Source of the DNA: Calditrichaceae bacterium
GTDB taxonomy: Bacteria > Calditrichota > Calditrichia > Calditrichales > JBFXGD01
NCBI GenBank assembly: GCA_050178385.1
Contig: JBFXGD010000052.1
Location: 1 to 21,348 of the forward strand
DNA: 21,348 bases
Direction: 5' to 3'
The notes under the pieces are model-generated. The model was not told the DNA's origin. It saw nothing but the letters and a program-made list of their open reading frames with translations, and made no database searches. Shown piece after piece: positions 1,557-20,312 of this stretch (position 1 is its first letter; each line of letters starts with the position of its first letter). The position numbers and the translations under genes were made by a program.

Positions 1557-4151
1557 ATGAATCTTATTACGAAAATTAAACCCAAATCACTATTCTATTC
1601 ACTCAATCAATTTAAAATTGTCAAAGACTATCAGCCATACCGTCAGGTTTTTTACGCTAAGGAAATTGTTGATCTGTATGCCAATTTTGTTTTTTACAAT
1701 AAGATGTTTGATGAAGAGGATTGGAGCGAGAGCATCACCGTGCGCCTGAACTTTCGTGATTATATGATAACGAAAGAAATCAAAATCATTGAAGTGCCTG
1801 TCAGTGTTTCTCAGGAAGAAAATATCGCTGTTGCCTCCTTTAAAATAATTGAAGATTGTAAACCGGATGAATGTCATGCCGGTGAATATTTCTGTGAAGT
1901 CGTTTATGAAGATGATGTATTGATTTCAGACAAATTTTATATCGATGACGTGCATACGCAGAAATTTAAACCGGAATCATTTTGCGATATTTTATCGCTC
2001 AAACTTTTTACCGGTGGCTCGGACGCTGATGAGTCGGCTGACCGAAGGGCTTATCTCTCACGTTTTTTTTATAAAGGTACCAGATATATCTGGGCGGAAC
2101 TTGAAATTACCAATATCCTTCCGCAAACCTGGCAGGGAGAGTTCATTTTCAGCTTCTACAATGACATAAGAGAACTTGCCGGGCAGGAACGTCGTATTGT
2201 GACGATTGACCATGAAAATCCAAACAGCGCCAATACCATTATGGCGGGGATAGGCTCCGATACAGAGATCACATGGGCGGAGGACAATTACACCGTCGAA
2301 ATCGTTTTCCTGAACCAACTTATTGCCACCGCCTTTTTTGAAGTCGGCAGTTCCAATTCAAGCAGCCCTCTAAAAACAATTATCCCGTCAAAAGAAAATC
2401 TCTCGTCAAAACGAACTACGACTATTGGCGCCGAGGAAACAATATTTGCTGAAATTGATCATCTGGTGGGGCTGCCTTATATCAAACAAAAACTGCATGA
2501 CCATTTTGGCTATGTCAAATACCTGAAACTTCGGAAAAATAAAGGATTAAGTTCGCTGGAAGACATTAATTTAAATTTTGTCTTCGCCGGTAATCCGGGG
2601 ACAGGTAAAACCAAAGTGGCCTTATTGCTGGGTAAAATCTATAAACAGCTTGGCTTACTTTCGAAAAGCTCTGTTTATGAAGTTGACAGATCAGATCTTA
2701 TCGGACGGTATATCGGAGATACCGCGCCGCTGACAAAGGAAGTCATCGAAAAAGCGCGTGGCGGCATATTATTTATCGATGAAGCATACGCGCTCTGGAG
2801 GGATGATGATAAGGACTTCGGGCGCGAATCAATTGAAATCCTGGTCAAGGAACTTTCAGACGGACCGGGAGATCTCGCGGTTATTGTCGCAGGCTACCCG
2901 AAAGAAATGAAGGAGTTTTTGGAATCAAACACGGGTTTGAAATCCCGCTTTAATTTTACATTTGAGTTTCCCGATTATACACCGGATGAGCTTATGGCAA
3001 TCGCGAAATTAATGCTTGCCGGTAAATCATTATTTATGACCGAAAAAGCGGAAGAAATTCTTTATAAAATGGTTGTCGAAGAATACAGGAAACGGGATAA
3101 ACATTTTGGTAACGCGCGGTATATCAATTCAATCATCGAAGAAGCACAGGTGAATCTTGGCTTGCGTATTGTCAGATCGGGCGCCGCGGGCGATGTTTCT
3201 GATACTGAATTATCTACAGTCACAGAGGATGATATCAGCAGGATCAGGCGAAATGTCGGTTCAAAATTTGTTGATCTTCCCATCAATGAGGAGTTGTTAA
3301 AAGATGCCATGGGCAGACTGAACCGGCTTGTCGGGCTTGAAAATGTTAAAAATACGGTTCGCGAGCTTGTAAAATTAGCCCGGTTCTACAAACAAAGCCA
3401 CAAGGTCCTGCTTAACTCCCTGTCACTTCATAATGTTTTTATCGGTAATCCTGGAACGGGTAAAACAACCGTCGCCAGGATTATCGCGGATATTTATAAG
3501 GCATTAGGGCTGCTGGAACGCGGACATCTGGTGGAGTGTTCGCGTGATTCGCTGGTTGCCGGATATATCGGTCAGACGGCGCTGCAAACCAAATCGATGC
3601 TTGAAGAATCCCTGGGAGGGGTTTTGTTTATCGATGAAGCATACTCTCTCTCCCAGGGGAACGGTGTAAGTGATTTTGGGCATGAAGCAATCGAAGTGCT
3701 TTTAAAATTTATGGAAGATAACAGAGGGGAGTTCGGAATAATTGCCGCGGGATACACCCAGGAGATGATAAAATTCCTTGAAACCAATCCAGGGTTACGT
3801 TCCCGTTTTGATAATATCATCTCGTTTGAAGATTTAAGCGCGGGAGATTTACTTTTGGTTGCCGAAAGAATTCTTGCCGAACGAAACATGCATTTTGAAA
3901 AAAAAGCAAAAATGCATCTTCAGAATTTTTTTGAGTTTCATTATTCAGAACGGGATAAATTTTTCGGAAACGCCCGGTTTGTCAGAAAGGTGGTTGACAG
4001 CGTTATTCGCAATCAGCATCTGCGTTTATCTGACATGTCACCGGATAAAAGAGATGATAAAACAATAAGAACCATCAAATTTGATGATGTTGATGACTTT
4101 GTTCCACAGAAGGATTTTGTTACGAGAAACAGAAAAAAAATAGGGTTTTAA
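1557..4151 (+). CDS. SpoVK/CbbX/EccA-type AAA+ ATPase with two tandem AAA modules and a duplicated N-terminal beta-rich domain
   Basis: 864 aa. Two copies of L.GL..(I/V)K, F.GNPGTGKT, pore loop GRYIG/AGYIG, Walker B LFIDEAY, AGY..EM..FL..N.GL.SRF and FGNAR. Ends in RKKIGF. Confidence 0.9.
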   Translation: MNLITKIKPKSLFYSLNQFKIVKDYQPYRQVFYAKEIVDLYANFVFYNKMFDEEDWSESITVRLNFRDYMITKEIKIIEVPVSVSQEENIAVASFKIIEDCKPDECHAGEYFCEVVYEDDVLISDKFYIDDVHTQKFKPESFCDILSLKLFTGGSDADESADRRAYLSRFFYKGTRYIWAELEITNILPQTWQGEFIFSFYNDIRELAGQERRIVTIDHENPNSANTIMAGIGSDTEITWAEDNYTVEIVFLNQLIATAFFEVGSSNSSSPLKTIIPSKENLSSKRTTTIGAEETIFAEIDHLVGLPYIKQKLHDHFGYVKYLKLRKNKGLSSLEDINLNFVFAGNPGTGKTKVALLLGKIYKQLGLLSKSSVYEVDRSDLIGRYIGDTAPLTKEVIEKARGGILFIDEAYALWRDDDKDFGRESIEILVKELSDGPGDLAVIVAGYPKEMKEFLESNTGLKSRFNFTFEFPDYTPDELMAIAKLMLAGKSLFMTEKAEEILYKMVVEEYRKRDKHFGNARYINSIIEEAQVNLGLRIVRSGAAGDVSDTELSTVTEDDISRIRRNVGSKFVDLPINEELLKDAMGRLNRLVGLENVKNTVRELVKLARFYKQSHKVLLNSLSLHNVFIGNPGTGKTTVARIIADIYKALGLLERGHLVECSRDSLVAGYIGQTALQTKSMLEESLGGVLFIDEAYSLSQGNGVSDFGHEAIEVLLKFMEDNRGEFGIIAAGYTQEMIKFLETNPGLRSRFDNIISFEDLSAGDLLLVAERILAERNMHFEKKAKMHLQNFFEFHYSERDKFFGNARFVRKVVDSVIRNQHLRLSDMSPDKRDDKTIRTIKFDDVDDFVPQKDFVTRNRKKIGF

Positions 4152-4199
4152 ATGGGTCTGCAAATGACAACTCTTTGCAAAAACTAAACAGGAAGACAA

Positions 4200-5933
4200 A
4201 TGAAAATTCGTGATTTGGAATGGTGGATTGTCGGAGTCTTGGGTATTATTGCATTCATACTTGCCATGATAGGTTTTAATATCATGTTTACTTGTGCCGG
4301 TATTGAAAGAAACATGCTGGATCTTGCTTTTCAGTCGATGAAAATTTTTGGGATGGAATTTGTAGATGAATTCGCGTCCCCTCTCCCGGTGCAGCTTGAA
4401 ATTGCCAGGTGGCTCGCGCCGTTGGTGGTGCTCTATACCGCGGCTAAGGCAATCATTTATTTTGTCCGGCGTGAATTTAGATCACTGCTGATTAAGTTTA
4501 ATAATGATCACATAATCATTACGTCACTGAATGACAAATCCAGATTTTTAATCAATGATTTGCTGGCAAAGAATGAAAAAGTAATCGTCGTCGCCTCTAT
4601 TGATTCTCCGGGAAAGCTGGATCTCATCGAAAAAGACGGGGCAATATTAATTGAAGGCAGCATATCTGATCAGAGATTTCTAAAAAACATCGCGGCGCAT
4701 AAAGCCAGGTATATGATGTTTATGGAGGATGATGATGAGAAGAATATTTCATCAGCCATATCGGTCTATCAGTTTCTGGAAAAATACGGTAAAGACAAAA
4801 TACAAACATTGTTTGTGCATGTGGCTGATGACCTGAAGCTAAATGAACTCAAAGAGCTGAGCTTTTTTGAAGAGTTTGCCAGCGGTAAAAATATCAATGA
4901 AGTTTGTGATATCAGAATATTTTCAATGAATGAGCGGACTTCACGGATATTGTTTAACAAATATTCCCCCGATATTTTTACTCCGGTGCATTCTTCCGAT
5001 GCTGCGCAGCTGCATGTGGCTTTGTTCGGATCGAATGATTTAACCCAAAGTATGATCATACGGCTCGCGAGACTGGGTAGGTACGCGAATTTAAAGAAGC
5101 TAAAGATTACTCTGTTTCACGAAGGTGACCGGATTGTAAATAAATTGAAAAACAGCTTCCCGGCCCTGAATCAACTGATTGATCTTGATCTGATCGACGC
5201 TCCCTTAGATATGTTTGATATTGAAATATTCGATAAAATACACATCGGACATCCGTTTTCGTCTGCATATATCCTATGCAAGGATGATGCGCTTTCCTCA
5301 TATATTTTAAATAAGCTTTCAAAAACAAAATCTGAAAATAAAATTGATGTTATCATTGGGCTGATGAATCCGGATGGCATATTAAATAAATGGTACACCG
5401 GAAGAATGCTGGAAAAAATAAATCTTCATAAATTCAATTTAATTGAAGAATCATTTACTAAAAACGCCATTATCTCCGAAGAAATTGATAAGCTGGCAAT
5501 GATTATTCATCAGGATTATTTAAGTAAACTAAAAAAGAGAGATCCCGCGAAACTTTCTCACCAGGACTGGGCCGCGCTTCCGGTAGATTTCAAAAATCAA
5601 AATCGTGAACAGGCCGATCATTTATATGTAAAATTGAGGGCGATGAATTGTGAAGCCCTGCTGTCCGGCCAGGAAAAAGGAAAGTCCGTCTCAATTTCAA
5701 ATGATTCTCCGTTTATGGAACTGCTTGCGGAAATGGAGCATGACAGATGGCAGGCGCATATGCTTTTAAACGGCTGGACCTATAACAAAACCCGCGATGA
5801 TCAAAAAAAGTATCATACCGACCTGGTACCATACAATCAGCTTAGTGAAGAAGTTAAAGACTGGGATCGAAATGCTATCGCGAATATGCCGGTGTTGCTT
5901 TCGAAGTTAGGATTTGTAATCCGGAAACTTTAA
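4200..5933 (+). CDS. Membrane protein: 2TM channel-like N-terminus + TrkA-N/RCK-like domains + C-terminal RyR domain
   Basis: 577 aa. Hydrophobic helices at aa ~8-30 and ~66-88 flank a pore-helix-like segment. RCK-like region HIIIT...LIEGSISDQRFL..I.AHKA...DDEKN. RyR signature LAEMEHDRW....LNGWTY....DD.KK.H.DLVPY.QL.EE.K..DR, preceded by a degenerate copy LA..IH..Y...W..L...FK..NR.QADH. Confidence 0.82.
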   Translation: MKIRDLEWWIVGVLGIIAFILAMIGFNIMFTCAGIERNMLDLAFQSMKIFGMEFVDEFASPLPVQLEIARWLAPLVVLYTAAKAIIYFVRREFRSLLIKFNNDHIIITSLNDKSRFLINDLLAKNEKVIVVASIDSPGKLDLIEKDGAILIEGSISDQRFLKNIAAHKARYMMFMEDDDEKNISSAISVYQFLEKYGKDKIQTLFVHVADDLKLNELKELSFFEEFASGKNINEVCDIRIFSMNERTSRILFNKYSPDIFTPVHSSDAAQLHVALFGSNDLTQSMIIRLARLGRYANLKKLKITLFHEGDRIVNKLKNSFPALNQLIDLDLIDAPLDMFDIEIFDKIHIGHPFSSAYILCKDDALSSYILNKLSKTKSENKIDVIIGLMNPDGILNKWYTGRMLEKINLHKFNLIEESFTKNAIISEEIDKLAMIIHQDYLSKLKKRDPAKLSHQDWAALPVDFKNQNREQADHLYVKLRAMNCEALLSGQEKGKSVSISNDSPFMELLAEMEHDRWQAHMLLNGWTYNKTRDDQKKYHTDLVPYNQLSEEVKDWDRNAIANMPVLLSKLGFVIRKL

Positions 5934-5951
5934 TCAGGGAGGATTGTAACG

Positions 5952-8900
5952 ATGCAAAAATCAATCTTTAATCTATATAAAAACAGAGAAGTCAGAGTAT
6001 TTATCTCTTCTACCTTCCGAGACATGATGGCTGAGCGGGAGTATCTTGTAAAAAAAGTATTCCCCGAATTGTGTAAAAAATACGCGAACCGGGGAGTAAC
6101 TATCACAGAGATTGATTTACGGTGGGGGGTTCTCGAGGAAGATGCGGAAAACGGAAAAGTGATTGATATCTGTCTTACGGAGATTGATCACAGCCGTCCC
6201 TATTTTATAGGAATTCTAGGAGAAAGATATGGCTGGATACCGGATCATTCGGAATATGATAAACACAAAAAAATAATTGAAAACTTTGGCTGGGTGGTAA
6301 AGGATATTGAAAACAATTTAAGCATAACGGAAATGGAAATTCAGTATGGGGTTTTAAGAAATCCAGGAATGATTGAAAGATCGGCGTTTTTTCTGCGGGA
6401 CAGTAAGAACGAATCTTCAATCGCATATAAAGAAACACCCGGTTCCGAAGAAGAGAATAAACTTAAGATTCTTAAGAATATTATTGAGAACAACCGGGAA
6501 CTAGAGAGTTCTTCATTTAATGATGCCGCTGAATTGGGAAAAAAAGTATTTGAACATCTCAGCAGGATTATTGAAGCGGACTTTCCGCTTCTGGATGAAA
6601 AGACAAAAAAGATTTTACCTCAGCTCAATTTTATTAATGCCCGGCGTAAAGTATATATCAAAGAAGAAAAATATTTTGGTTTAATATCCGATCATATTAA
6701 AAGAACATCTTCGCCCATAGTAATCACCGGTAAAACAGGCGCGGGAGCATCGTCACTTCTCGCAAACTACCTTGTTGAGTACGCTGAAAAAAATCCGGAT
6801 GATTTGTTGCTTTACAATTTTAGTAACGCCTCGGAAAATTCATCAAATTATATCCAGGTACTCAGGAGATTTTGTGAAGAATTGTCCGGAAGAGAAATCA
6901 ATCTGCAAGAAGAGTTTGCTGAAAACAGCGGCGAACAGCTAAAAAATTATCTGGATGAACTGATCACGCAAAAGGCGCCGCAAAATATTCTGATGGTTAT
7001 TGACGGATTGGATGAATTTGATAATGAGGATAATTCACTTCTGCTAAATTGGCTGTCGTACAGTTTTGATGATAACGCAAAGGTTATTGTGTCTTGCGGC
7101 GCGGGTGATTCGCTGGAGAGACTGAAGAAGAGAAGATATGAAGTGGTTTATATCACCGAACCGGATAAAGGTGCCAAAGAAAAATTTATTAACGATTATC
7201 TATCGGAATTTAGTAAAAAATTACCGTCTAAATATGTGGAAGCGATTGTTAGCGATGATATTTCGGAGCTGCCCCTGACCCTGAAGTCGTTTCTTGATGA
7301 ATTGCGTCAGTTCGGCCTGCATGAAGAGCTGGACAGTCAGATAAAATATTATACTTCCGCCGACGGGCCGGTTGAATTTTTTGACAGACTTCTACAGCGT
7401 CTGGAAACGGACTTTGAGGAGAACAAAAAAGGCCTGATTGAGGATATTTTTACGCTTTTGTACACTTCAGGAACCGGATTATCGGAAACGGAGATACTCT
7501 CAATACTTGAAATTCCGCCGCTTTACTGGACTCCGGTTTATAATGCCATTGAGAGCAATATCCTGAATATGAACGGACAGCTGAGGATTGCCCATAAGTA
7601 TCTATCCGACGCGGTCAAACAACGTTATTTAAAATCTTCTGAAAACCAGAAAAAAATTAGCGGAAAAATCATCACTTATTTTATCGAAGATATCCGTGAC
7701 TCACGGGCGGTTCAGGAAGTGGCGCACCAATATATATTATTAAATGATAAAAAAGGCCTATACGATTTTCTCTCGGCTATGGAGACGGTGATCAGTCTTT
7801 TTGTCAGCAGGGATAACGAGTTATTGCTTTTGCGGTACTGGGTCTGGTTATATCCCGATTATTCTCCAGGAGGTATTTACTCACCGACTCAGTTAATAGA
7901 TTTTATTGAAGCAAAAGAATATAATTTTAAAGAAGCCATCACTGTTATTACGGTATTTGGCTTGCTGTTTAAAAACCTGGGTATTTTGGATGTAGCCGAA
8001 GATTATTTTAAAACCGTTTATGTTTGGAGTAAAAAGCATCTGGATGAGCGTGATGATCTCATACGATCATCACTGGCCCGTCTTGTCTTAACAAATCTTG
8101 ATCTGAACAAAATTGAACAGGCCGAGAAATACGCCGGGGAGGCCGTTTTACTTTGCGATAAATATCTTGCCAAAGAAGACAGTAATTATATCGCTGCTTA
8201 TTCAAATCTTGGATTGGTTTTGTCGGCGAAGGAAAAGTATAGTGAAGCCATCGAAATTTACAAGGTGCTCCTGGAAATTATTGATGATGATGAAACAAAA
8301 ACAGAAAAATCAAAGCTCAGTATACTCAATAATCTTGCTACCGCATATTTTAATAATAATTTAATAGATGAATCAATCAAGATTTACATAGAGCTCATCA
8401 ATACAGGGGAAAATCTGTATGGCTCCGATCATGCCGAAAACATTATTCCGCTTAGCAATTTAGCTTTTATTTATTCTCAGATCGGTAAACATGAGGAAGC
8501 TCATGAATATTTTAACAAAGGTATTGAGATCTGCACAAAAACGTATGGAGAATCTCATCCGGAAACAATAAGCATCCTTTTCAATTTTATCGGCGTGCTT
8601 CTTTCCGAAGGAAATTATGATCTGGCGGGTTCATATTTAGATAATATCGAAACGATTCTGAAGCGGGAAAATATAAAAGGCGAAAAATTCGGTCAGCTGC
8701 TGCATTTGCGGGCACAATTATTTAGTTCAAAAGATGACTCCCAAAAAGCGATTAGCTTTGAAAAAGATGCATTAAAAATATTCACGGAAGAATTTGGGAT
8801 TGACCACAAAAATACGATAAACAGTCTTCAAAATCTTTCCGCATATTATTTGGAAGCTGATCAACTTGCTGAAGCTGAAGAAACGATCAGGAACACCGAA

Positions 8901-11336
8901 AATATTCTGCTGGATAAATCCGGGAAAAAGGATGTTCGTCTCGCTGAAGTGTATAACTTATATGGCGGATTATACAAAAATAAGGGAGAATTAGGATTAG
9001 CCGAAGAATATTTAGGTAAAGGCCTGGAATTAAGAATTGATATTCTTGGTGAAATGCATAAGGATACGATCAAGAATTTTCAAAATTATGCCGTAATTTT
9101 AATTGCAAATAATAAAATGGATCGGGCGATGGAGGTTGTTGAGTATAATTTAAAATTAAGCGAAGACAGATTTGGAAAAGATTCAATAAGATATTGTGAA
9201 AGCCTGGAATTGATGAATGAGATTCTATCCAGGCAAAAAGAATTTGACGCGCTCGAATCAAACTTGCTGCATATCTATGAATTTTACGGGAAAACCTATG
9301 GGCAGAATCACCGGATCACCTATAACACTCTGATCAGACTTATTAATGTAAAAAAAGAGTTGGGACATAAAGAGCAGGTTTTGGTGATGACTCCAAAAGC
9401 GATTGAAATTGCCAAAAGTATTTGGGATGAAGATGATAGCAATTATCAAAATTTGCTTCTCGACACAGGTATGAATTTCGCCAATGAAAAGGAATTTGAA
9501 AGAGCCATATCATTATTTGAAGAATTATACAAAATTCAGATCAGAAATTTCGGCAAATTTGACAGTCGGACCATCTTGACTTTGAATAATATCGCCGGGG
9601 CAAAAAAGCTAAACGGGGACATGAACGGCGCCGGGCGGGATTATGAAGAATTATTTGATTCAATCGGGAAAAACAAGACTCCGTACAATGACGAAATACT
9701 AACCTGTTTAAGTAACTATGCCAGAATTAGCCATGAACTCGGGGATCTGGATAAAGCGGACACAAACTATCGAAGTTGTTTTGAGAATGCATCGAAGATC
9801 CACGGTTTTACGCATGAGACTACCCTGGACCATTTAAATTATTTAGGGCAATTCTATAATAATACGGATCGGTTTGATGAGGCAGAAGCCTTATACAGAA
9901 GGTATCTTAATAATTTGACATCCGCGGATGAAGAAACAGAAATAGCACTCATTGAAGTTCTCAAATTATTAATCAACCTGATCGCGCCCCAAAAGGATTA
10001 CGAAGCGCTTGAGCCATTATTGCTAAGGCGCGCCGGATTGTCCGAAAAAATCTATGGCATAAACTCTGTCCGGACAGTCAGGGTTTTGCTGGTACTTTCC
10101 GTCAATTATCAGCTTAAAGAAGATTATCAGAACAGTGTCGCTATTCTCAACAGGATCGCAAAAGAATGCACATCTGAAACATTGTATGGCTCGGGTGATG
10201 AATATGTTCAGATTTACAATGATTTAATCACTTTTTACAATGGAAAAGATACTGAGCAAAAGGAAGAAGCGCCCGCCGATGAAAGCTGGAAAGAAAAAAC
10301 GGATCAAAATAAAAAACTAATTGAACAAGCGGAAAGCGAAGGCGATACCCGCCGGACACTGGAAATATTGGCGGATAATATCGAACTGTACGAGAAGCAT
10401 CAGGGGGCTGAGCATCCTGATACAGTCTTTTGCAAGCGTGATTACGCGAATAAACTCATCGAGATTGACCAGTTCGAATTCGCGGGCAAAATTCTTGAAG
10501 AGGTTTTGGGCATTTTAAAAAACACTTTAGGCGTAAATCATACAGAATATACATTAACGCTTTATTCACTTGCCAAAGCACAAAAAGGTTTGGGTAAATT
10601 TGACGATGCTCTCGCGGGATTTAAGAAAGTAAAAGATCAGGCTGCCGCTGGCCTCGAAAGCAATCACCCGTTTTTGTATGAGATCAACAAAAAAATTGCC
10701 GACACATATTTTGTGATGTTTAAAAATGAAGAAGCATTACGAATATTTAACACTCTCCTGGAAATGATTCCTGAAGAGAACGGCATTGAAAGAGCATATA
10801 TCATACTGCAGATCGGACAGTTATATATACGGCTGGAAATGTATGACGATGCCATAAAATATCTAAGCAAAGCAGAACAATTTTATGATGGGCAGTTTAA
10901 AGAAAATAATCCTTATTCCATTATGATTCCGGATCTGTTGGCGTTTATATATTGGAAAAAAGATGAACTTGAAGCCGCTGAAAAATATTATTGTCAGGCG
11001 GTGGAGAACGCCAGAAAAATGCTCCCGCCCGAACATCCGGCGTACATAAAAACCATCAAAACTATGGCGCTCTTTTATTTTAATAACAATAGATTTAGCG
11101 AATCATTGACCTATCACAATGAATTGTTGAATAATTATATTCAGACTTATTCCGGGAAAGATCAAATTGTTGTCGAACAAAAATTAACCGTCGCGCTGAT
11201 ATATCATAATCTGGAGATGCACAGAGAAGCCGTTGGTTTGTTAAAGGAATCCATCGAAGCCGAACCGGAAGTTTTATCTGAAAACGCTCAAAAAATGATG
11301 ATGAATTTGTATAATTTTTATTCGAAAGGTGATTGA
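5952..11336 (+). CDS. DUF4062 (TIR-like) + STAND/NACHT-type P-loop NTPase + long kinesin-light-chain-type TPR array (NPHP3/TEP1-like architecture)
   Basis: 1794 aa. RVFISSTFRDM..ER..L, DLRWG, ICL.EI...PYFIGILGERYG and SITEMEI.YG mark DUF4062. P-loop region VITGKTGAGASSLL, Walker B MVIDGLDE, winged-helix-like GLSETEI. Many ~42-aa G.DHP.T...L.NL...Y repeats follow. Strong RBS AGGGAGGA at 5936-5943. Confidence 0.88.
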   Translation: MQKSIFNLYKNREVRVFISSTFRDMMAEREYLVKKVFPELCKKYANRGVTITEIDLRWGVLEEDAENGKVIDICLTEIDHSRPYFIGILGERYGWIPDHSEYDKHKKIIENFGWVVKDIENNLSITEMEIQYGVLRNPGMIERSAFFLRDSKNESSIAYKETPGSEEENKLKILKNIIENNRELESSSFNDAAELGKKVFEHLSRIIEADFPLLDEKTKKILPQLNFINARRKVYIKEEKYFGLISDHIKRTSSPIVITGKTGAGASSLLANYLVEYAEKNPDDLLLYNFSNASENSSNYIQVLRRFCEELSGREINLQEEFAENSGEQLKNYLDELITQKAPQNILMVIDGLDEFDNEDNSLLLNWLSYSFDDNAKVIVSCGAGDSLERLKKRRYEVVYITEPDKGAKEKFINDYLSEFSKKLPSKYVEAIVSDDISELPLTLKSFLDELRQFGLHEELDSQIKYYTSADGPVEFFDRLLQRLETDFEENKKGLIEDIFTLLYTSGTGLSETEILSILEIPPLYWTPVYNAIESNILNMNGQLRIAHKYLSDAVKQRYLKSSENQKKISGKIITYFIEDIRDSRAVQEVAHQYILLNDKKGLYDFLSAMETVISLFVSRDNELLLLRYWVWLYPDYSPGGIYSPTQLIDFIEAKEYNFKEAITVITVFGLLFKNLGILDVAEDYFKTVYVWSKKHLDERDDLIRSSLARLVLTNLDLNKIEQAEKYAGEAVLLCDKYLAKEDSNYIAAYSNLGLVLSAKEKYSEAIEIYKVLLEIIDDDETKTEKSKLSILNNLATAYFNNNLIDESIKIYIELINTGENLYGSDHAENIIPLSNLAFIYSQIGKHEEAHEYFNKGIEICTKTYGESHPETISILFNFIGVLLSEGNYDLAGSYLDNIETILKRENIKGEKFGQLLHLRAQLFSSKDDSQKAISFEKDALKIFTEEFGIDHKNTINSLQNLSAYYLEADQLAEAEETIRNTENILLDKSGKKDVRLAEVYNLYGGLYKNKGELGLAEEYLGKGLELRIDILGEMHKDTIKNFQNYAVILIANNKMDRAMEVVEYNLKLSEDRFGKDSIRYCESLELMNEILSRQKEFDALESNLLHIYEFYGKTYGQNHRITYNTLIRLINVKKELGHKEQVLVMTPKAIEIAKSIWDEDDSNYQNLLLDTGMNFANEKEFERAISLFEELYKIQIRNFGKFDSRTILTLNNIAGAKKLNGDMNGAGRDYEELFDSIGKNKTPYNDEILTCLSNYARISHELGDLDKADTNYRSCFENASKIHGFTHETTLDHLNYLGQFYNNTDRFDEAEALYRRYLNNLTSADEETEIALIEVLKLLINLIAPQKDYEALEPLLLRRAGLSEKIYGINSVRTVRVLLVLSVNYQLKEDYQNSVAILNRIAKECTSETLYGSGDEYVQIYNDLITFYNGKDTEQKEEAPADESWKEKTDQNKKLIEQAESEGDTRRTLEILADNIELYEKHQGAEHPDTVFCKRDYANKLIEIDQFEFAGKILEEVLGILKNTLGVNHTEYTLTLYSLAKAQKGLGKFDDALAGFKKVKDQAAAGLESNHPFLYEINKKIADTYFVMFKNEEALRIFNTLLEMIPEENGIERAYIILQIGQLYIRLEMYDDAIKYLSKAEQFYDGQFKENNPYSIMIPDLLAFIYWKKDELEAAEKYYCQAVENARKMLPPEHPAYIKTIKTMALFYFNNNRFSESLTYHNELLNNYIQTYSGKDQIVVEQKLTVALIYHNLEMHREAVGLLKESIEAEPEVLSENAQKMMMNLYNFYSKGD
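7930..11250 (+). repeat. Protein-level TPR repeat array (roughly two dozen 42-aa-type units, estimated from length) inside the DUF4062-STAND gene
   Basis: Recurrent YGSDHAEN, YGESHPET, FGIDHKNT, LGEMHKDT, YGQNHRIT, HGFTHETT, QGAEHPDT, LGVNHTEY, LPPEHPAY motifs. Boundaries approximate. Confidence 0.8.
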
Positions 11337-11367
11337 GTATTCGGTTAAAAAATACTCTTAAACTATT

Positions 11368-14307
11368 ATGCCAGAGAATATTGACAAGACAATACGCATT
11401 GATGATTCAGATTCGGAAACTAAGCCGGATAATACCATCCGGATAGACGAGAGCAGCTCGCGGGATTTGGATCAGACGATTAGAATGGATCATAACTCCG
11501 TCATTAAATCCGGTCTGGGCGGGGGTATTTCGGCAAAGGCAAACCGACATAATTTGTATGATTTGAATGGCAGAGAATACCGCGTATTAAGAAAAATCTC
11601 CGAATCTACTTCCGAGGCTCAAATATTTTTAGTCGAAATAGATGGCGGACAGTATATTCTCAAATATTATTATCCCTTCATCAAACCCAAACAGGAAGTG
11701 ATCAATAAATTAAGGTCTTTGTCACATCCGGATATCATCTCCGTTTTGGATTCCGGCTATTACGAAGAGCGGTTTTTTGAGATATTGACATACGCTGATC
11801 AGGGTTCACTTGCTGAACATATCCCGATTAAAAATATTAAAAAAATTAAGAAGTATGTGACGGAAATTTCAAACGCCTTAAAATTTTGTCATGACAACGG
11901 GATCATTCATCGGGATATAAAACCTTCAAACATATTCCTGAAGGATAAAAGTAAAAACGATGTGCTTGTGGGTGATTTCGGGATCGCGTCGATTGTCAGT
12001 GATGGCGAAGAATTAAGAAGGACAACCACCTTCCAGACGCCGGTGTACGCGGCGCCGGAATTTAAATTATCGTTAAGGGGCGAAACGATCATCACTAAAG
12101 CGGTTGATTATTACGCGCTCGGGATATCCGTCTGGGAGATGTACAGCGGGGTCATACCGCCGGACGGAATGGATGATCTGGAATTTCTGCGTGAAATGTT
12201 TGAGGGTGAACCCCCTCTGCCGGCAGATATGAATGAGGAAATTGCCAATCTCATCAAGGGATTAACGGTTCGGAATTATAAAAAAAGATGGGGATATGAG
12301 GAAGTCGGCAAATGGCTGAAAGGTGAATATGTTGAAATACATACCGAAATTAACGATGAATCCGGGGCTGTATTCGATTTCGGTGAGGATGATAAGGGAA
12401 AGACGCTTGTCGCCGGCAATCCGCAGGAATTAGCCAAACTGATTTATCGGTATCCCGATTTAGGGAGAAAGCATCTATACCGGGGCACCATAAAAGACTG
12501 GCTGAAAAAAACCGGTAATCAAAGATTGTTGATTGAAGTTGCTGATATCACCGAATATATTTATAAGGATGATGAGAAAACTGGTACAAATTACGCGGTA
12601 TATATTCTTGATAAAAACTTTCCGTTTTATTCACTTTCCAATAAACCGCTCAGAACAAAAAAGGAACTGGTTGATGAATTAAGACTAAACTGGAAAGTTT
12701 ACACACCGGAACTTAAGGATCCCAATCATAAATTATATCTGTATCTTCAGTCAAAAATCGCGCGTGATGATGTCGAAAAATTTAGAGAATGCTATAAACA
12801 AAAAAAAGATGAATACGCATTCTATAACATACTGTACACTCTTGAGTTTTCCTATGACAAGAATGCTCCGTTCGCTATCTTTACAAGGGGGGTTCTAAAA
12901 ACACTCATTAGATCACTGGAAGAATTATCCGGGTATTTTTTGAAAAATTGTTCAACAAGAAAGTCATTGTTTCTCAGCGCCGATTTCTGGGTTTGGCTTG
13001 AGTTCAAAGACCGGGAAATAGTATCCACCCTTCAAGAACTATTCAAAGAAGAAGACGGAGCGAGTAAAAATCTTCTTGGCCAGCTGCCTTATCTGATTTC
13101 ACCGGATTCAGGGTATAAAGGATTAAAGGGGAATGAAATATTTCCTTTTCAGGATTTCGGTAAAGAATTCTATGAAAATTTTGAAGCGTATAAAAAGATA
13201 TTCAAGAATGAGGAAAGCGAGATATTTTATTATCTAAAGTCGAAAAACCTACCCGGTGAGATATCTTTTATACAAAAATGTTTTAATCCCGACAACAAGC
13301 CGACTCCATTTAATGAAAATCTGGCGATGATTAAAATCATCAAGGGATTTGAGTATGATTTGCCTTATGTGAATAAGAGTGATTACTTTTTTTCCCCCGA
13401 TGAATTAATGGCCTCTCTGAAAGGCTCTTCCAGGATTAAAGAGGAACTATCGGATCAGGCTTCCTTTCTAAACATGTGGTTATCTGTGTTTTTCCACGAA
13501 CAGCCGCTAAGTGATGACAGAAAATTTTACATCTATTACCGGGATGATTTTGATAAACAGCTTGAAAAATATTTAGTTTTTATCAAAAAACTTCACAAAA
13601 AAAATGAGATTTCCGGGCGGTATGAAACCGCGAAGAATAAAGTAAAAAGTATCCAGAATAAATACAGCAGGATTGGCTCAAACCGTGTTATAAAAAATAT
13701 TTTCTATTATGGATTGCCTCTGATACCGGCTGTCTTGCTGGTATTATATTCGGTATTTTCAGAAAATAATCCCCTGCCTGCGAATATCTTTAACGTGGGT
13801 CAATGGTATTTTATACCGGTAGCCCTTCTGGTCACGGGTTATTTGTTCAAAGTCATGCATGACAATAATGAAATGGAGTTCAGTACCGGGTGTGTTGGCG
13901 GGCCGGTTCTCGGACTAATTGTCGCTGTTATCTTGTATTATGTTTCTCTTTTCATCATATCTGTTCCACTACTTCTGGTGATAACCCTGGGGATAACATT
14001 CTATTTTATATTCAAAAAATTATATTATCTGATAAAAGAGTATTCTGAAGCCCTGAATAGCGAGAAATCCTATGTTGATATGGATGGCATTAATGATTTG
14101 GTTTATTCCTACACTTTTAAGAAAAAAAATAACATATCCGTTTATGAATCAGAAGGTTTAAAAGAGGCGCATAGTTATACTAAATCAATAAGGCTGAAAG
14201 TATGGGCAATGTTATTGACACCGGCGTTATTCCTAAGCGCAATCGTGTTATTGCTTGTTTATTATAGCCCGGAATTAAACTTATTAAAAATATTAAAAGG
14301 TCAGTAA
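11368..14307 (+). CDS. Hanks-type Ser/Thr protein kinase with internal ~83-aa repeats and a C-terminal multi-pass membrane region
   Basis: 979 aa. YILK99 (VAIK-equivalent lysine), HPDII, HRDIKPSN, GDFG, TPVYAAPE, DYYALG and subdomain XI arginine in YKKRW. About 5 hydrophobic helices in aa ~778-966. Confidence 0.92.
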   Translation: MPENIDKTIRIDDSDSETKPDNTIRIDESSSRDLDQTIRMDHNSVIKSGLGGGISAKANRHNLYDLNGREYRVLRKISESTSEAQIFLVEIDGGQYILKYYYPFIKPKQEVINKLRSLSHPDIISVLDSGYYEERFFEILTYADQGSLAEHIPIKNIKKIKKYVTEISNALKFCHDNGIIHRDIKPSNIFLKDKSKNDVLVGDFGIASIVSDGEELRRTTTFQTPVYAAPEFKLSLRGETIITKAVDYYALGISVWEMYSGVIPPDGMDDLEFLREMFEGEPPLPADMNEEIANLIKGLTVRNYKKRWGYEEVGKWLKGEYVEIHTEINDESGAVFDFGEDDKGKTLVAGNPQELAKLIYRYPDLGRKHLYRGTIKDWLKKTGNQRLLIEVADITEYIYKDDEKTGTNYAVYILDKNFPFYSLSNKPLRTKKELVDELRLNWKVYTPELKDPNHKLYLYLQSKIARDDVEKFRECYKQKKDEYAFYNILYTLEFSYDKNAPFAIFTRGVLKTLIRSLEELSGYFLKNCSTRKSLFLSADFWVWLEFKDREIVSTLQELFKEEDGASKNLLGQLPYLISPDSGYKGLKGNEIFPFQDFGKEFYENFEAYKKIFKNEESEIFYYLKSKNLPGEISFIQKCFNPDNKPTPFNENLAMIKIIKGFEYDLPYVNKSDYFFSPDELMASLKGSSRIKEELSDQASFLNMWLSVFFHEQPLSDDRKFYIYYRDDFDKQLEKYLVFIKKLHKKNEISGRYETAKNKVKSIQNKYSRIGSNRVIKNIFYYGLPLIPAVLLVLYSVFSENNPLPANIFNVGQWYFIPVALLVTGYLFKVMHDNNEMEFSTGCVGGPVLGLIVAVILYYVSLFIISVPLLLVITLGITFYFIFKKLYYLIKEYSEALNSEKSYVDMDGINDLVYSYTFKKKNNISVYESEGLKEAHSYTKSIRLKVWAMLLTPALFLSAIVLLLVYYSPELNLLKILKGQ

Positions 14308-16811
14308 TGTCGTTAGTCTGCAGTAAATGTAAAGCCGAGAACCGGGTCAGCGCGAAATACTGCAAAGCTTGCGGTAGAGCGATTGAGAAACAAATGTATT
14401 CCGGCCTGGATGATGTAATTGGCCGTGAGGATATTAAAGCGACTTTAAACCGGGTTGTTAAGTCAATCGCGCAATTTAAAAAGGGCTGGAACGGCGAACT
14501 TGAATTTAATAAAAATATGATCATTACCGGAAATTCCGGTACCGGCAAAACGAGTTTGGTTCTCTCGATCGCTGATCTGTTTTACAATGAAAATATAACC
14601 GGTAAAAAGCAATGTGTCATTGTTGACGCTTCGGAGTTCGAAGAATTTATTGCGAATATAGAGACTGAATATGCAAAGGCCAAAGACGGAATTCTGTTTA
14701 TTGATAATTTCCATAAAATAGTTAACGGCTCAAATAATGCGGGGCCGGCTGATGTGGATAAACTGATCTACAGAATGGGAAAGGATGGAGCCAATCCGAT
14801 CGTTATTGTAGCCGGAAATCCATCAGAAATCGATAATTATTTTATGAACAACGCTTCTGCAAAAAACAGATTCGAATTTAGCTTCAGATTGTATGATTTT
14901 ACTTCGGCGGAACTGTACGACATATGTAAACAACGCATCGAGAAAGTTGGATTACGGTTGAACGAAAAATCTGCCAACAAACTCTCGTGGCTATTTAAAT
15001 ACAAAGTTAAAACCAAAGATGCCTCCTTTGGGAATGCTCACTATGCTCTGAACGTGGCTGAAGATATTACTTTAGCGTATTATCACCGGATATCTCTCGG
15101 ATCCAGCGATGATAAAATAATTATTGAATCGGATATAACAGAAAATGTACCAAAACAGAAAACGTTAAATGAAATATTCTCTGAACTTGATTCATACGTG
15201 GGCCTGGAGAAAGTAAAGGCCGCCATACATGATATTGCTCTGCAAATAAAAAATCAGCAGAAATTAGAATCTAAGGGTAAAAAGGAAAAACTGCAGTTTG
15301 GATTTCATATGGTGCTTACGGGTAATCCCGGCACCGGCAAAACGATGCTTGTAAGAAAACTGGGAGAAGTCCTTTCGGCGATCAATTATCTTGACCGTGG
15401 CCATGTGGTTGAGGTGGATAAGAGCAAGCTGGTCGGACAGTTTATTGGATCGACGCCTCAGATTGTTCAAAAAAGATGCGACGAGGCCATGGGGGGAATT
15501 CTTTTTATCGATGAAGCCTATGCTCTTGCTCCCAAGGCGGGAGACGCCAATCAATTTGGGCAGGAAGCAATTGAAACCCTGCTTAAACGAATGGAAGATG
15601 ACCGGGACAAATTTGTCGTTGTTGCCGCCGGATACAGAAATGAGATGCAGCACTTCATCAATGCCAATCCTGGGTTAAGAGGCAGATTTGACAGATTTAT
15701 TCATCTTGATGATTATAATCCGGATGAGCTCGTTGAGATATTCAAATTTCTCTTAAACAAAAGTAATTATTCCATGTCACCGGAGGCGTACGCTAAACTT
15801 CCCGAAATCATCAATGAACTTTATGAAAAAAGGGAAAAAATTTTTGCTAACGGCAGGGAAGTGAGAAAATTGTTTGAAGAAACCGTTATAAATTTATCAA
15901 AAAGAGTATCATGTCTCCGAAGTGAGGAGCAAACATATGATAGAATGACGAGAATAGAATCCGCGGACTTTCCTATACAGATTGAAAAAAATGACAACCT
16001 GGATGATATATTTAAGGAGTTAAATTCTCTGGTCGGGCTGCGGAATATTAAGGGCGAATTCGAAAAATTAGTTTCTTATGTAAAAGTGGAGCAAAAGCGG
16101 AAAGAACTTGGCGGTGAGTACGGCGGATTAAGTAACCATTTTGTATTTATGGGAAATCCCGGAACAGGAAAAACCACTGTAGCCAGACTGCTCGGTAAGA
16201 TTTTTAAATCTCTGGGAGTGCTGACAAAAGGTCATGTGATTGAAGTTGACAGATCCGGACTCGTTGCGCAGTTCGTCGGCCAGACATCAGCCAAAACAAA
16301 TGAAGTGATTGATTCAGCCATGGGCGGGGTTCTTTTTATTGATGAAGCATATTCCTTAATCGTAAACGATTCAAAGAACGACTTCGGAAAACAGGCAATA
16401 CAAGCATTATTAAAAAGGATGGAAGATGATGCCGATAGGTTTGTTGTAATAACCGCCGGTTATCCGAAGGAGATGGATGAATTTATTAATTCAAATCCCG
16501 GCCTGAGCTCACGATTTAAGAGGAAAATACAATTTCCAGATTATAATCCGGATGAACTTTTTGAGATATTTAAATTAATGATGAATAAAAAAAGGTTGCG
16601 ATTGACGGATGATGCAGGCAAAAAGGCAAAAAATTTATTTGTTCAGATATATGAATCGCGGGGAAAAAATTTCGGAAATGGCAGAATGGTGAGAAATATT
16701 TTTGAAGCTACGTTGGAAAATCAAAGTTTTCGGGTGGCGCGGTTATTAAACTCGCCTGATTTGGATAAAGATACTCTCTACAAAATTGAAGCGGAGGATG
16801 TTCAATATTGA
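14307..16811 (+). CDS. Zinc-ribbon + triple SpoVK/CbbX-type AAA+ ATPase (first module degenerate)
   Basis: 834 aa. N-terminal CSKC-x10-CKAC. Three Walker A motifs (GNSGTGKT, GNPGTGKT x2). Walker B motifs FIDNF (degenerate) and FIDEAY x2. FGNA/FANGR/FGNGR motifs. Starts in a TAATG overlap with the kinase stop. Confidence 0.9.
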   Translation: MSLVCSKCKAENRVSAKYCKACGRAIEKQMYSGLDDVIGREDIKATLNRVVKSIAQFKKGWNGELEFNKNMIITGNSGTGKTSLVLSIADLFYNENITGKKQCVIVDASEFEEFIANIETEYAKAKDGILFIDNFHKIVNGSNNAGPADVDKLIYRMGKDGANPIVIVAGNPSEIDNYFMNNASAKNRFEFSFRLYDFTSAELYDICKQRIEKVGLRLNEKSANKLSWLFKYKVKTKDASFGNAHYALNVAEDITLAYYHRISLGSSDDKIIIESDITENVPKQKTLNEIFSELDSYVGLEKVKAAIHDIALQIKNQQKLESKGKKEKLQFGFHMVLTGNPGTGKTMLVRKLGEVLSAINYLDRGHVVEVDKSKLVGQFIGSTPQIVQKRCDEAMGGILFIDEAYALAPKAGDANQFGQEAIETLLKRMEDDRDKFVVVAAGYRNEMQHFINANPGLRGRFDRFIHLDDYNPDELVEIFKFLLNKSNYSMSPEAYAKLPEIINELYEKREKIFANGREVRKLFEETVINLSKRVSCLRSEEQTYDRMTRIESADFPIQIEKNDNLDDIFKELNSLVGLRNIKGEFEKLVSYVKVEQKRKELGGEYGGLSNHFVFMGNPGTGKTTVARLLGKIFKSLGVLTKGHVIEVDRSGLVAQFVGQTSAKTNEVIDSAMGGVLFIDEAYSLIVNDSKNDFGKQAIQALLKRMEDDADRFVVITAGYPKEMDEFINSNPGLSSRFKRKIQFPDYNPDELFEIFKLMMNKKRLRLTDDAGKKAKNLFVQIYESRGKNFGNGRMVRNIFEATLENQSFRVARLLNSPDLDKDTLYKIEAEDVQY

Positions 16812-17341
16812 TTTGTCCATATTGTTTAAAAGAGATTGACGATGATTCGGCTTACTGCGATCAATGCGGTGGAGAGTTGTTTGTCTGTCCGGTATGCGGA
16901 AAAACGGGCAGGGAAATGGTTTGTGAAGATGATCATGTAAAATATATTTCGGTAAGCGGTAACAAAAAGATTGCAATTGGAAACTTCTTCAAAACAGAAA
17001 GAATCGACAAGATACCGCATTCAGAATCAAAGATTGAAGCGCCCGGACTTATTTTTTCAAACAAAAATATCGGAATTGATCTCAGGATGGTGAACGATGA
17101 TATCATCGGAAGAAAAAGTAAAAAATTTTCTGACATCCTTGGAAACTATAAACAGATATCAGGCAGTCATGCCAAGGTGAATTTTAGTTCAGGCTCGGGA
17201 TGGACTATCATTGATTTAAATTCATCAAACGGTACAATATATAATGATAAAAAATTGGTGCCGTTTGAGTCGGTTAAATTGCAGAATGAAACTTTTATCA
17301 CCCTCGCCGACATTGAGTTTTATGTCTTGATTGACAATTGA
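16808..17341 (+). CDS. Double zinc-ribbon + FHA domain protein
   Basis: 177 aa. CPYC...CDQC and CPVC...CEDDH knuckles. FHA signature IIG101R102, IS118GSH121A, DLNSSN141GT. TTG start overlaps the upstream TGA (TTGA), with GGAGGA RBS at ~16793-16798. Confidence 0.88.
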   Translation: MICPYCLKEIDDDSAYCDQCGGELFVCPVCGKTGREMVCEDDHVKYISVSGNKKIAIGNFFKTERIDKIPHSESKIEAPGLIFSNKNIGIDLRMVNDDIIGRKSKKFSDILGNYKQISGSHAKVNFSSGSGWTIIDLNSSNGTIYNDKKLVPFESVKLQNETFITLADIEFYVLIDN

Positions 17342-17896: not shown

Positions 17897-19720
17897 TTAA
17901 TACACCTCTGCCGGCGTCATGGACAATTTTTCAATTTCCAGGGTTAGGAGCTGGATGGCTTCCATGCTTGCGTCTATTTCACTCAAAATATGTGATTTTG
18001 TATCTTCAAAAATGTCTTTCAGGTCGCTAAAAAGCGCGCGATAATAGTTCGCGCCTTCCTGAAGATTACCGGCAAAAGTTAACAGATATTTTTCCTGTTT
18101 TTCGGACATGGAAACCCGTGTTTCGTCTATTTTATTTTTCAGATAATCAATATAGATTCTCAATTCTTTTATAAACATATTGGGACGATCGGTCCGGGTG
18201 ATCACATTTATTCTGCCGTAGATGTGATCGGTGATTTCCTTCAGGGTCATAATTTTTGAAAAATACGCCATGTTCGGGCCGGGACATACCGAAACTCCCG
18301 GACCTTCAACTATTGTATCTAAATCATGTACCAGCAGGGCGGATGTGCCAAGGCCCACGCAGATGCAAGATTTATCCGTGATGTCCTTGAATCTTTTCTG
18401 GTACTCCTCCGTGGATACCCCCTCTTCGTCCAGTTCTTTTAATTTTAAGTATTGATATTGACGCGATGCCGTACAAATAGATTTTTCGGTAAACTCTTTA
18501 TTGATCGACGCATGTTTATTGGGGCATGAACTGCCCGGCTTCCCTTTGGCGATCAGAGCAAATTTTTCCAGATCTTTTGTGTTGCCCTTTAGACTGTTGA
18601 ACGGAACACCCAATGGTGAAATATTACTTAAATATAAATCATCTTCTTTGGCGTCGCTTAATTTATCCAGAGTAGGATCGTCAACGGTTGTCGCTTCCGG
18701 CACCAGAAGAAACGGAGTGCCCCATCCGACTGAATCAACCTGATAATGATTGAGAAGAAACTGATGCTCTTCCGCTGTGCCGACACCACCCTGAGCGGTT
18801 ATTTTCAGAGGCAGTTCTTTTTCCGGAACATGACGGTTTTTAGCGGAGAGCGCCCGCGCCATAATATTGTGAATGGTTTCTTTGAGTTCTTGTTTTTTGT
18901 CCCGGAATTCGGCTAAGATGGGACCCAAAAGATATCCGTCGGTTGCGAAAGCATGCCCGCCGCAATTCAATCCCGATTCAATTCTGAATTCTGAAACCCA
19001 CAGTCCTTTTTTTGCCAAAAATTTACCCTGAATAAAAGCAGACCGGTAGTCGCTCACTTTTAGTACGATTCTCTTTTTGATTTTTCCGTTCTGATCCGGA
19101 TAGAAATCTTCAAACTGTTCCATATAGCCGTAGAGTCCCGGATTCATTCCCGCCGAAAAAATGACCGACGAATTTAGATCGCTATTGGCATAGCCTCTTA
19201 GCGCGGCATGGGCGTCGTTGTATTCAACTGGGAGTTTTTTGTCTTTTATGTAGTTTTCCTTATCAAGTTTGGTCATTATATTTACATCGATACTGCCTTT
19301 TGAAAGATGCTCGTTGATCCAACTTCTGAAATCATTCAGATTAAAATATTTTGAGCTTAAACTCCTGAATTCCTGCTTTATGGCGGAGCTGTCAGGCAGC
19401 ATGTTGAAATATTCTTTTATCTCATGGCTTTTATCGATCGCCGCATTTTTTAATTCTTCCAGTTTCACGTCAACCAGAGTGTTTATCAGATTCAGATAAG
19501 ATGTGATTCTTTTTGCGCGGAAGTCATCTGTCTTGTTGGAGATTTCATCATAAGGGAGCTTATACTTTCCGCAGTACATTTTTCTTAACTTTTCCAAAAG
19601 AATGTCATCGACTAAAGATATAACGGAATCCATTCCGTAGTGGGAGACCTTTAGCGGAGTATCGATAGTAAAACCGATTCCCATTACGGGTATATGAAAT
19701 GAATGTGTTTTTGTCTTCAT
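17897..19720 (-). CDS. Conserved hypothetical protein; probable remote nitronate monooxygenase/FabK/FabX-like FMN TIM-barrel oxidoreductase with Cys motifs
   Basis: 607 aa, AGAGG RBS. Motifs in NMO/FabK order: IFSAG, LKVSD.RSA, IESGLNCGGHAF, ITAQGGVGT, VGWGTPFL, SPLGVP, C...C...CIC, CPGPN....KI.TLKE. Confidence 0.6.
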   Translation of the reverse strand: MKTKTHSFHIPVMGIGFTIDTPLKVSHYGMDSVISLVDDILLEKLRKMYCGKYKLPYDEISNKTDDFRAKRITSYLNLINTLVDVKLEELKNAAIDKSHEIKEYFNMLPDSSAIKQEFRSLSSKYFNLNDFRSWINEHLSKGSIDVNIMTKLDKENYIKDKKLPVEYNDAHAALRGYANSDLNSSVIFSAGMNPGLYGYMEQFEDFYPDQNGKIKKRIVLKVSDYRSAFIQGKFLAKKGLWVSEFRIESGLNCGGHAFATDGYLLGPILAEFRDKKQELKETIHNIMARALSAKNRHVPEKELPLKITAQGGVGTAEEHQFLLNHYQVDSVGWGTPFLLVPEATTVDDPTLDKLSDAKEDDLYLSNISPLGVPFNSLKGNTKDLEKFALIAKGKPGSSCPNKHASINKEFTEKSICTASRQYQYLKLKELDEEGVSTEEYQKRFKDITDKSCICVGLGTSALLVHDLDTIVEGPGVSVCPGPNMAYFSKIMTLKEITDHIYGRINVITRTDRPNMFIKELRIYIDYLKNKIDETRVSMSEKQEKYLLTFAGNLQEGANYYRALFSDLKDIFEDTKSHILSEIDASMEAIQLLTLEIEKLSMTPAEVY

Positions 19721-19802: not shown

Positions 19803-20312
19803 TTATAAATCTTTTGTCATGTCTCCTAAATTAATTTTTTCCGCTTTTGTAAAGGTGATATCTCTTACAAGTTTCATGTCACCCCACAAATATTTATGGC
19901 CTCTCATTCCTTTGGTGGGCTTCATTCTTTTCATGAGCCGGCTCAGTTCAATCTCTGTAGCTTCTCTTTTTTCTCCAAGCTGTCCATATAGTTTAATTGC
20001 CGGATGAAGATTGAAGTTTCCTTTTATTAAAGATTTTATCCAAAACCAGCTATTGCTGTTCACCGCCAAAACACAAATGTTTTTGTTCGTATCGGCGTGA
20101 ACAGGCAGTTTTGAAGGATACTTTTCAAAATAAAAACCTGTCTGGTTCTTGTTTAAAAACAACGAACCGATTGGCGTAACCGTCGGATTGTTTTCAGAAT
20201 CGACCGATGCGATTGAAACATGAAAGTTTGAGCTAAAACTTTTATTAAAATGAGATCGTATTTGTTTCCACTCGGTTTTTATATTCATATTTCGCAATTT
20301 GTCTTTACGCAA
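19803..20312 (-). CDS. Pyridoxamine 5'-phosphate oxidase-like FMN-binding split-barrel protein
   Basis: SIASVDSENNPTVTPIGSL, L..H...NKNICVLAV and AIKLYG match the PNPOx-like family. The true start may be the ATG at 20288 (MNIKTEW) rather than the TTG at 20312. Confidence 0.72.
   Translation of the reverse strand: MRKDKLRNMNIKTEWKQIRSHFNKSFSSNFHVSIASVDSENNPTVTPIGSLFLNKNQTGFYFEKYPSKLPVHADTNKNICVLAVNSNSWFWIKSLIKGNFNLHPAIKLYGQLGEKREATEIELSRLMKRMKPTKGMRGHKYLWGDMKLVRDITFTKAEKINLGDMTKDL

Follow-up and report, generated by a model that had tools for sequence, protein, structure and literature searches.

The kinase PknG has a disordered N-terminal extension whose autophosphorylation sites anchor the FHA domain of GarA or OdhI, and loss of both this extension and the TPR domain cuts activity on OdhI about 7-fold, while activity on a peptide is not lowered (cited passages of PMC8546545). 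The FHA domain of ArnA binds a phosphothreonine cluster with a duplicated motif on ArnB (cited passages of PMC12852372), and that of DgcB binds its own tail at Thr14, in cis or in trans, the residue at +3 being the usual FHA determinant (cited passages of PMC6733907). We analysed a 21,348-nucleotide stretch of DNA from a Calditrichaceae bacterium (contig JBFXGD010000052.1; hereafter the window), which encodes a Hanks-type Ser/Thr kinase (11368..14307) with a threonine motif repeated three times in its N-terminal tail and, two genes further on, a zinc-ribbon-FHA protein that we call the adaptor (16808..17341). Both genes lie on the plus strand, as do all features below unless marked otherwise.

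An earlier note on this DNA proposed that the repeats form a multivalent landing pad for the operon's FHA protein. The comparative evidence supports this: the tail is repeated, predicted to be disordered and specific for threonine, the genome has no FHA match other than the adaptor, and the adaptor shares the motif. The accompanying argument from the +3 residue was only partly right. The three motifs are most likely threonine phosphorylation sites that the FHA protein of the operon reads, with D-x-T-[IV]-R-(hydrophobic)-D as their code.

Results

The kinase tail carries three copies of the motif, all where the earlier note had placed them: D6-K-T8-I-R-I-D12 (11383..11403), D21-N-T23-I-R-I-D27 (11428..11448) and D35-Q-T37-I-R-M-D41 (11470..11490). 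The candidate phosphothreonines T8 (codon 11389-11391), T23 (11434-11436) and T37 (11476-11478) are spaced 15 and 14 residues apart, and the columns of T8 and T37 are at least 90% conserved in an alignment of 44 homologues. The pattern D.TIR[IM]D has three matches in the 2994 crude open reading frames (ORFs) of the window's own genome (1.13 M residues; G000, 94% complete), all in this tail. The three sites rank 2, 3 and 12 among the 56,436 threonines of the genome under the tail profile. Shuffling residues 1-62 200,000 times never yielded three occurrences of T.R[IM]D (two arose in 3 shuffles), and a pattern-free test on the best three 7-mers gave five identical columns against at most three in 1500 shuffles. 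Residues 1-45 include 12 D/E and 6 K/R. AlphaFold2 gives the tail (residues 1-51; 11368..11520) a pLDDT below 50 and predicts the kinase to be folded from about residue 63.

The repeats might instead be a neutral low-complexity duplication, or lie upstream of the true start and remain untranslated. Two formal alternative starts exist, L34 (TTG here, GTG in the same-genus relative G001) and M40 (ATG). As the earlier note had observed, however, the codons of the three copies have diverged while the peptide is kept: threonine is encoded by ACA, ACC and ACG, isoleucine by ATA, ATC and ATT, and arginine by CGC, CGG and AGA. The motif also stands at a fixed distance from Met1 in homologues down to about 25% identity. 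An in-frame TAA lies two codons 5' of the ATG at 11368. The first T-x-[RK] falls at residue 8 in 33 of 118 homologous tails and at residue 3 in another 33, and the repeats are therefore very probably translated as part of the protein, with a downstream start unlikely. Comparing the tail codons of the two genomes was uninformative (codons 1-30 are identical, and all 3 replacements are in spacer). This neutral or wrong-start explanation is already largely refuted, and we regard it as having almost no chance of being correct.

To describe the motif across the family we took the best 120 of 1601 kinase matches, dropping P0063 (no tail) and P0121 (no anchor), which left 118 measurable tails with a median length of 69 residues. 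The family motif is D-x-T-[IV]-R, with the arginine at +2 as its constant feature. T-x-R occurs 271 times among 746 threonines, against 33±5.5 in shuffles (maximum 47), and is found in 116 of the 118 tails. S-x-R occurs only 10 times against 43±6 expected, though serine is the commoner residue (1009 against 746 threonines). Every tail has at least one T-x-[RK] and 109 have at least two, with a maximum of 10 and a median spacing of 17 residues. As a control we used 80 loci (79 generic-kinase loci from a metagenome scan and one unrelated kinase from a genome-collection scan); 3 of their 93 unrelated kinases have at least two T-x-[RK] within 130 residues before the kinase domain. Around T-x-R, position -2 is D in 35%, -1 is K in 34%, +1 is I or V in 55% and +4 is D in 42%.

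The earlier note had reasoned from the selectivity of FHA domains at +3. This fits the 17 closest orthologues, where +3 is I, L, V, M or F at 49 of 64 sites, but much less the family as a whole: +3 is I, L, M or V at 115 of 340 T-x-[RK] sites, the residues that occupy it at T-x-R vary (I 13%, A 12%, V 9%, P 9%, D 8%), and the constant is the arginine at +2.

The tails hold a second motif that the earlier note had missed. In most homologues I-I-[SP]-[SA]-G (consensus I-I-S-S-G) alternates with T-x-R, following it by about 7-10 residues, in up to 4 copies. The looser I-x-[SA]-[GDE] matches in 98 of 118 tails, 58% of T-x-R sites have isoleucine as the +8 residue, and the window has a lone copy, V45-I-K-S-G49 (11500..11514), identified from the homologue alignment. 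Binding of phosphothreonine by an FHA domain does not explain this conserved motif. T-x-R and I-I-S-S-G could together be phosphorylation-independent motifs that bind some other partner in the operon, be it the zinc ribbons, the TPR protein or, as a threading tag, the AAA+ ATPase. Matches to the kinase and to the zinc-ribbon-AAA protein also occur on equal-sized contigs in three pairs (P0003/P0287, P0019/P0290 and P0044/P0335), which indirectly suggests that the kinase-ATPase linkage is conserved in those pairs. Such binding would not, however, account for the exclusion of serine from the central position, and sister loci described below swap the type of ATPase while keeping the FHA gene. We consider this explanation distinctly improbable.

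The adaptor (177 residues) consists of a double zinc ribbon, a linker and an FHA domain (Pfam FHA E 4e-13; DZR), and its TTG start overlaps the stop of the ATPase gene. The phosphothreonine-binding residues G101-R102, S118-x-x-H121 and N141-G-T are present. Among 105 homologues G101, R102, S118 and H121 are invariant and N141 is at least 90% conserved; the R102 that had been singled out for mutation is thus the invariant arginine of the G-R motif. The model has a pLDDT of 90, with the FHA fold present and a low-confidence linker. The adaptor is the only FHA match in its genome, and there is likewise only one in G001 and in G217. Complex prediction of FHA residues 78-177 with tail residues 1-50, in which phosphothreonine was absent, scored 0.01 with controls that did not fold, and weighs neither for nor against binding.

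The adaptor also carries a motif of its own, T63-E-R-I-D (16994..17008), in its flexible linker. Its three closest homologues keep F-F-x-T-E-R, where the window has K-T63-E-R-I-D. We examined 126 of 154 adaptor matches, leaving out 28 that were longer than 270 residues or had no parsable linker. Linker T-x-R occurs 52 times against 14.1±3.5 in shuffles, mostly 23-44 residues before G-R, with no enrichment of S-x-R (18 against 18.0) or T-x-K (30 against 25.5). A further form of placement is at the other end: in 40 of the 126 a short extension closes the protein with T-x-[RK], and +3 is I, L, V, M or F in 36 of these, after 5 C-terminal matches that were merely the last strand had been dropped. 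The motif is in the linker only in 44 adaptors, at the C-terminus only in 37, in both in 3 and in neither in 42; the Fisher p of 1e-6 for exclusive placement overstates the effect. Those parts were left out of a quick adaptor tree, 74 of whose 123 branches are open; on it the two types are interleaved, and the placement probably arose in more than one event. This pattern, a single copy in each adaptor close to the FHA domain and to either side of it, is that expected of a self-ligand. The linker motifs resemble the tail of their own kinase more than those of other loci, a weak effect (permutation p 0.033, 7 loci) in which the stretch of residues compared was chosen post hoc.

The motif could alternatively be only the substrate signature of the kinase, with the tail regulating the kinase as a pseudosubstrate or charge switch, the adaptor copy a mere substrate site and the FHA domain reading other ligands. 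The arginine at +2 and the acidic residue at -2 look like kinase specificity determinants, +3 is variable, and tails persist in two kinases that have no adjacent FHA gene. What this explanation does not predict is one motif per adaptor beside the FHA domain, on either side, the hydrophobic +3 seen at the C-terminus (36 of 40 copies), or an FHA gene kept across different operon types. PknG that lacks its N-terminal region and TPR domain, moreover, keeps its activity on a peptide (cited passages of PMC8546545). We think it unlikely that the motif is a substrate signature alone.

The kinase itself (979 residues; Pfam Pkinase E 3e-35) comprises the tail, a kinase domain at about residues 63-320, a helical middle and C-terminal hydrophobic segments (778-796, 847-865 and 945-963). 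Its catalytic residues are intact (K99, H181-R-D183, D203-F-G and A229-P-E) and invariant in the aligned homologues, and fold matches agree. In place of the canonical Gly-rich ATP loop it has S-E-S-T-S-E-A; the family consensus is S-x-S-x-G-E-A-E, with E83 invariant. Another cellular kinase might phosphorylate the tail before the FHA protein docks, there being 7 other Pkinase proteins in the genome and the activation-loop threonines of this kinase following a pattern unlike T-x-R. Those 7 proteins have no N-terminal tail and begin directly at the kinase domain. Against a separate kinase stand the invariant catalytic residues and the way in which tail, kinase and FHA protein travel together in a patchy module, present in 2 of the phylum's 86 genomes; we find it very improbable.

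Two side observations concern kinase genes of this genome. The kinase genes of the window (11368-14304) and of G001 (L087 13853-16789) show mosaic divergence: only 2 of the 450 codons from 321 to 770 differ, whereas the kinase domain has 25 changed codons of 258 and the C-terminal part 77 of 209, which suggests recent recombination. Elsewhere, contig C50 of the window's genome has three canonical Ser/Thr kinase genes close together (1529-11464), near a SpoIIE-type phosphatase match at 93-665.

Of 11 related loci, 9 (the window, G001, plasmid locus L086 and L095-L100) have a zinc-ribbon-FHA gene next to the kinase gene; they represent two operon types. An FHA gene was found in 4 of the 80 control loci, and in 3 of the 33 that are at least 10 kb long. 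Sister kinases are encoded by a plasmid of Aristaeella lactis and in two further phyla, by 6 of 151 genomes in one and by 2 of 190 in the other. Thr-repeat tails (T-x-x-N, T-R-x-V or T-x-[RK]-[VI]) are combined with a zinc-ribbon-FHA gene on the plasmid and in all six genomes of the first of these phyla; these seven loci also have a radical SAM gene and a different ATPase, and a PP2C gene in 3 of 7 by a crude motif test. The plasmid locus (L086 11253-22700) has two kinases, each with T-[VTI]-[IFL]-N repeated in the tail, together with FHA, radical SAM, AAA, PP2C, DUF6273 and DUF4011 helicase-like genes. Three loci (L097 2726-11612, L098 3212-11492 and L099 8253-18874) contain tandem arrays of 3-4 paralogous kinases before one zinc-ribbon-FHA gene; the array kinases whose tails were inspected have a Thr-motif tail, and DYD or DFD in place of DFG.

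The two kinases of the other phylum, in G258 and G259, have an H-L-D catalytic loop, and their genomes hold 3 FHA matches each elsewhere. Both genomes encode stand-alone 106-residue FHA proteins (L131 7903-8220 and L132 4141-4458) that start M-E-K-T-V-I, echoing the E-K-T-I-K of the unlinked kinase in the same genomes.

No family match was found in 84 of the 86 genomes of the window's own phylum, in the phyla of G092 (6 genomes), G088 (120), G099 (26) and G098 (2), or under 5 further handles, and plasmid searches with P0103, P0118 and P0149 gave none. One viral scan had no match; the other returned 4 loci matching the zinc ribbon alone, with no kinase or FHA. A reverse search with the adaptor profile matched 11 of 151 genomes, nine of them in the C-terminal FHA part only. 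The two matches that bear a zinc ribbon are the known G242 locus and one in G151; the latter adjoins a vWA-like gene (by eye), and its 16 kb contain no kinase match.

The kinase gene is the fourth of a six-gene run on the plus strand, the last three genes of which (kinase, ATPase and FHA) overlap at their stops and starts. Between kinase and adaptor lies the gene for a zinc-ribbon protein with three SpoVK/EccA/CbbX-type AAA+ domains (14307..16811), translationally coupled to both neighbours. Its first AAA+ domain, with D-N in the Walker B motif, is probably inactive. Relatives of this ATPase (P0286-P0338) have 3, 4 or 5 tandem AAA+ domains (about 830, 1110 and 1390 residues), and nearly all those inspected have D-N in the first Walker B. 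The run opens with a second SpoVK-type ATPase that has two AAA+ domains (1557..4151; Pfam/NCBIfam), followed by a membrane protein with TrkA_N and RyR domains (4200..5933; Pfam). Directly upstream of the kinase is a 1794-residue protein with DUF4062, a NACHT/NPHP3_N-like P-loop domain and TPRs (5952..11336; Pfam), a possible sensor that may be linked to the kinase. This NLR-like protein and the TrkA_N/RyR protein also occur in G001, where the gene order is the same as in the window.

A candidate site in the ATPase that opens the run, D-D-K-T836-I-R (rank 5 of 56,436), was rejected: G001 has G-D-K-T-I-K there, and the position is that of the lid-end helix of the other ATPase. No conserved tail-like motif was seen in the 29 inspected of 58 matches to the second ATPase. 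SpoIIE-type phosphatases have ten matches each in the window's genome and in G001, all outside the operon. PADLOC returned only generic kinase and AAA matches (mad6, PD-T4-6, IetA) and none for the FHA, RyR or TPR proteins, while the NCBIfam MADS6 models scored far below cut-off for the window, which did not show the several components of an anti-phage system. A scan of the window for promoters and terminators was at chance level.

Outside the run, the minus strand of the window encodes an Rnk/GreA-type factor (460-876), a 607-residue protein with no Pfam match above cut-off (17897-19720), a 169-residue protein with no Pfam match (19803-20312) and, at the contig end, two short TPR-like ORFs, assigned by eye (20603-21348).

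Discussion

The adaptor is probably recruited by autophosphorylated tail sites and then becomes phosphorylated on the motif that it carries itself, much as with PknG-GarA/OdhI. We infer every phosphorylation and binding step in this scheme. The membrane kinase, activated probably by clustering, would phosphorylate T8, T23 and T37 in its own or its partner's disordered tail. From established FHA chemistry, the adaptor would then bind the phosphothreonines through R102, S118 and N141, and three sites 14-15 residues apart could provide avidity or a threshold. The docked adaptor would next be phosphorylated on T63-E-R-I-D, and this phosphorylated copy might either compete for the FHA pocket, giving self-closure and release in the manner of GarA/OdhI, or bind another adaptor. 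More speculatively, the zinc ribbon of the adaptor may connect with the multi-AAA+ ATPase, whose gene lies between those of the kinase and the FHA protein.

Several points weigh against recruitment of the adaptor by the phosphorylated tail. A third of the adaptors (42 of 126) have no motif of their own, and T63 ranks only 220 among the 56,436 threonines of the genome under the tail profile. The +3 residue, the usual FHA determinant, is I, L, M or V at only 115 of 340 tail sites, and both the selection of threonine and the arginine at +2 could equally be a preference of the kinase for its substrate rather than of the FHA domain. For the T-x-R family proper the genomic context comes from the window's genome and G001 only; the rest are sister subfamilies (T-R-x-V, T-x-x-N), and several of the sister-locus genomes are close kin. 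The kinases of G258 and G259, whose surroundings contain no FHA gene over 12.4 kb and 7.3 kb, respectively, still have short E-K-T-I-K tails, and one kinase homologue (P0063) has no tail. Finally, there is no PP2C gene in the operon, and PF13672 has no match in the window's genome or in G001.

The kinase tail could also nucleate a chain of adaptors, with the T-x-R of each phosphorylated adaptor binding the next FHA domain, the NACHT-TPR sensor switching the kinase on and the ATPase dismantling the phospho-dependent filament, the operon itself having no phosphatase. We rate this extension as quite unlikely. ALPK1-TIFA signals through FHA domains joined head to tail, and if the chain were real it would be a bacterial counterpart of that system, with an unusual code of phosphothreonine and arginine at +2.

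Recruitment by the tail followed by phosphorylation of the adaptor would put the docking logic of PknG-GarA into a countable tandem array, with 1-10 T-x-[RK] in each tail and one further copy in the adaptor, placed in the linker or at the C-terminus. The family thus offers a natural series for asking how the number of sites sets a threshold and whether FHA domains select on +2. It would also provide a defined phosphothreonine code, D-x-T-[IV]-R, for a kinase family without a description found in the literature, whose named matches include Calditrichaceae-related proteins, Melioribacteraceae, Mucilaginibacter, Dictyoglomus and Thermoflexus. Literature searches, made largely without subscription journals, found no paper describing the kinase/zinc-ribbon-FHA module or the sister loci. 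A preprint reportedly deals with a Deinococcus vWA-kinase-FHA-PP2C operon. The cited parts of PMC7159879 describe other systems, and the cited passages of a bacterial kinase atlas (10.1101/2025.01.12.632604) show no match to the window kinase, though its supplementary family tables may classify it.

The sister kinase-FHA-PP2C-radical SAM-AAA loci, such as that on the Aristaeella lactis plasmid NZ_CP069422, share with the window a related Thr-repeat-tail kinase and a zinc-ribbon-FHA gene. They differ in having T-x-x-N or T-R-x-V in the tail, a single-ring-type ATPase (ClpB-like by eye) instead of SpoVK-type ATPases, a radical SAM gene and often PP2C.

Among described proteins, ArnA of Sulfolobus acidocaldarius, with a zinc finger, linker and FHA domain, gives the adaptor family its best sequence match in the PDB, along the full length (E 3e-13). 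In the ArnA-ArnB-ArnC system, however, the phosphothreonine cluster is on the vWA protein ArnB rather than on the kinase, and Pfam finds no vWA domain in the window operon. DgcB of Bdellovibrio is the top Foldseek match to the FHA domain of the adaptor, but there the FHA domain is joined to a GGDEF enzyme, hydrophobic residues occupy +2 and +3 of the site and the kinase is not known.

The likely parallel in mode of action is PknG-GarA/OdhI, which shares the disordered N-terminal kinase extension with several threonines and the FHA partner with a Thr motif of its own (cited passages of PMC8546545). The kinase is nevertheless not a PknG: its only Pfam matches are to the kinase domain, with no TPR or rubredoxin, it has C-terminal hydrophobic segments, and no PknG model is among its NCBIfam matches. 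Nor is the adaptor a GarA or OdhI, as its N-terminus is a double zinc ribbon with no ETTS, and T-E-R-I-D lies in the linker (internal or C-terminal across the family). The window operon, unlike PknG-GarA/OdhI, has AAA+ ATPases. Where the sequence at PknG's N-terminus is described, in the passages cited, as poorly conserved, the tails here repeat a fixed motif with arginine at +2 in up to 10 copies. The docking principle is already known from PknG, and the present analysis adds the arginine +2 code and the adaptor's own movable copy of the motif.

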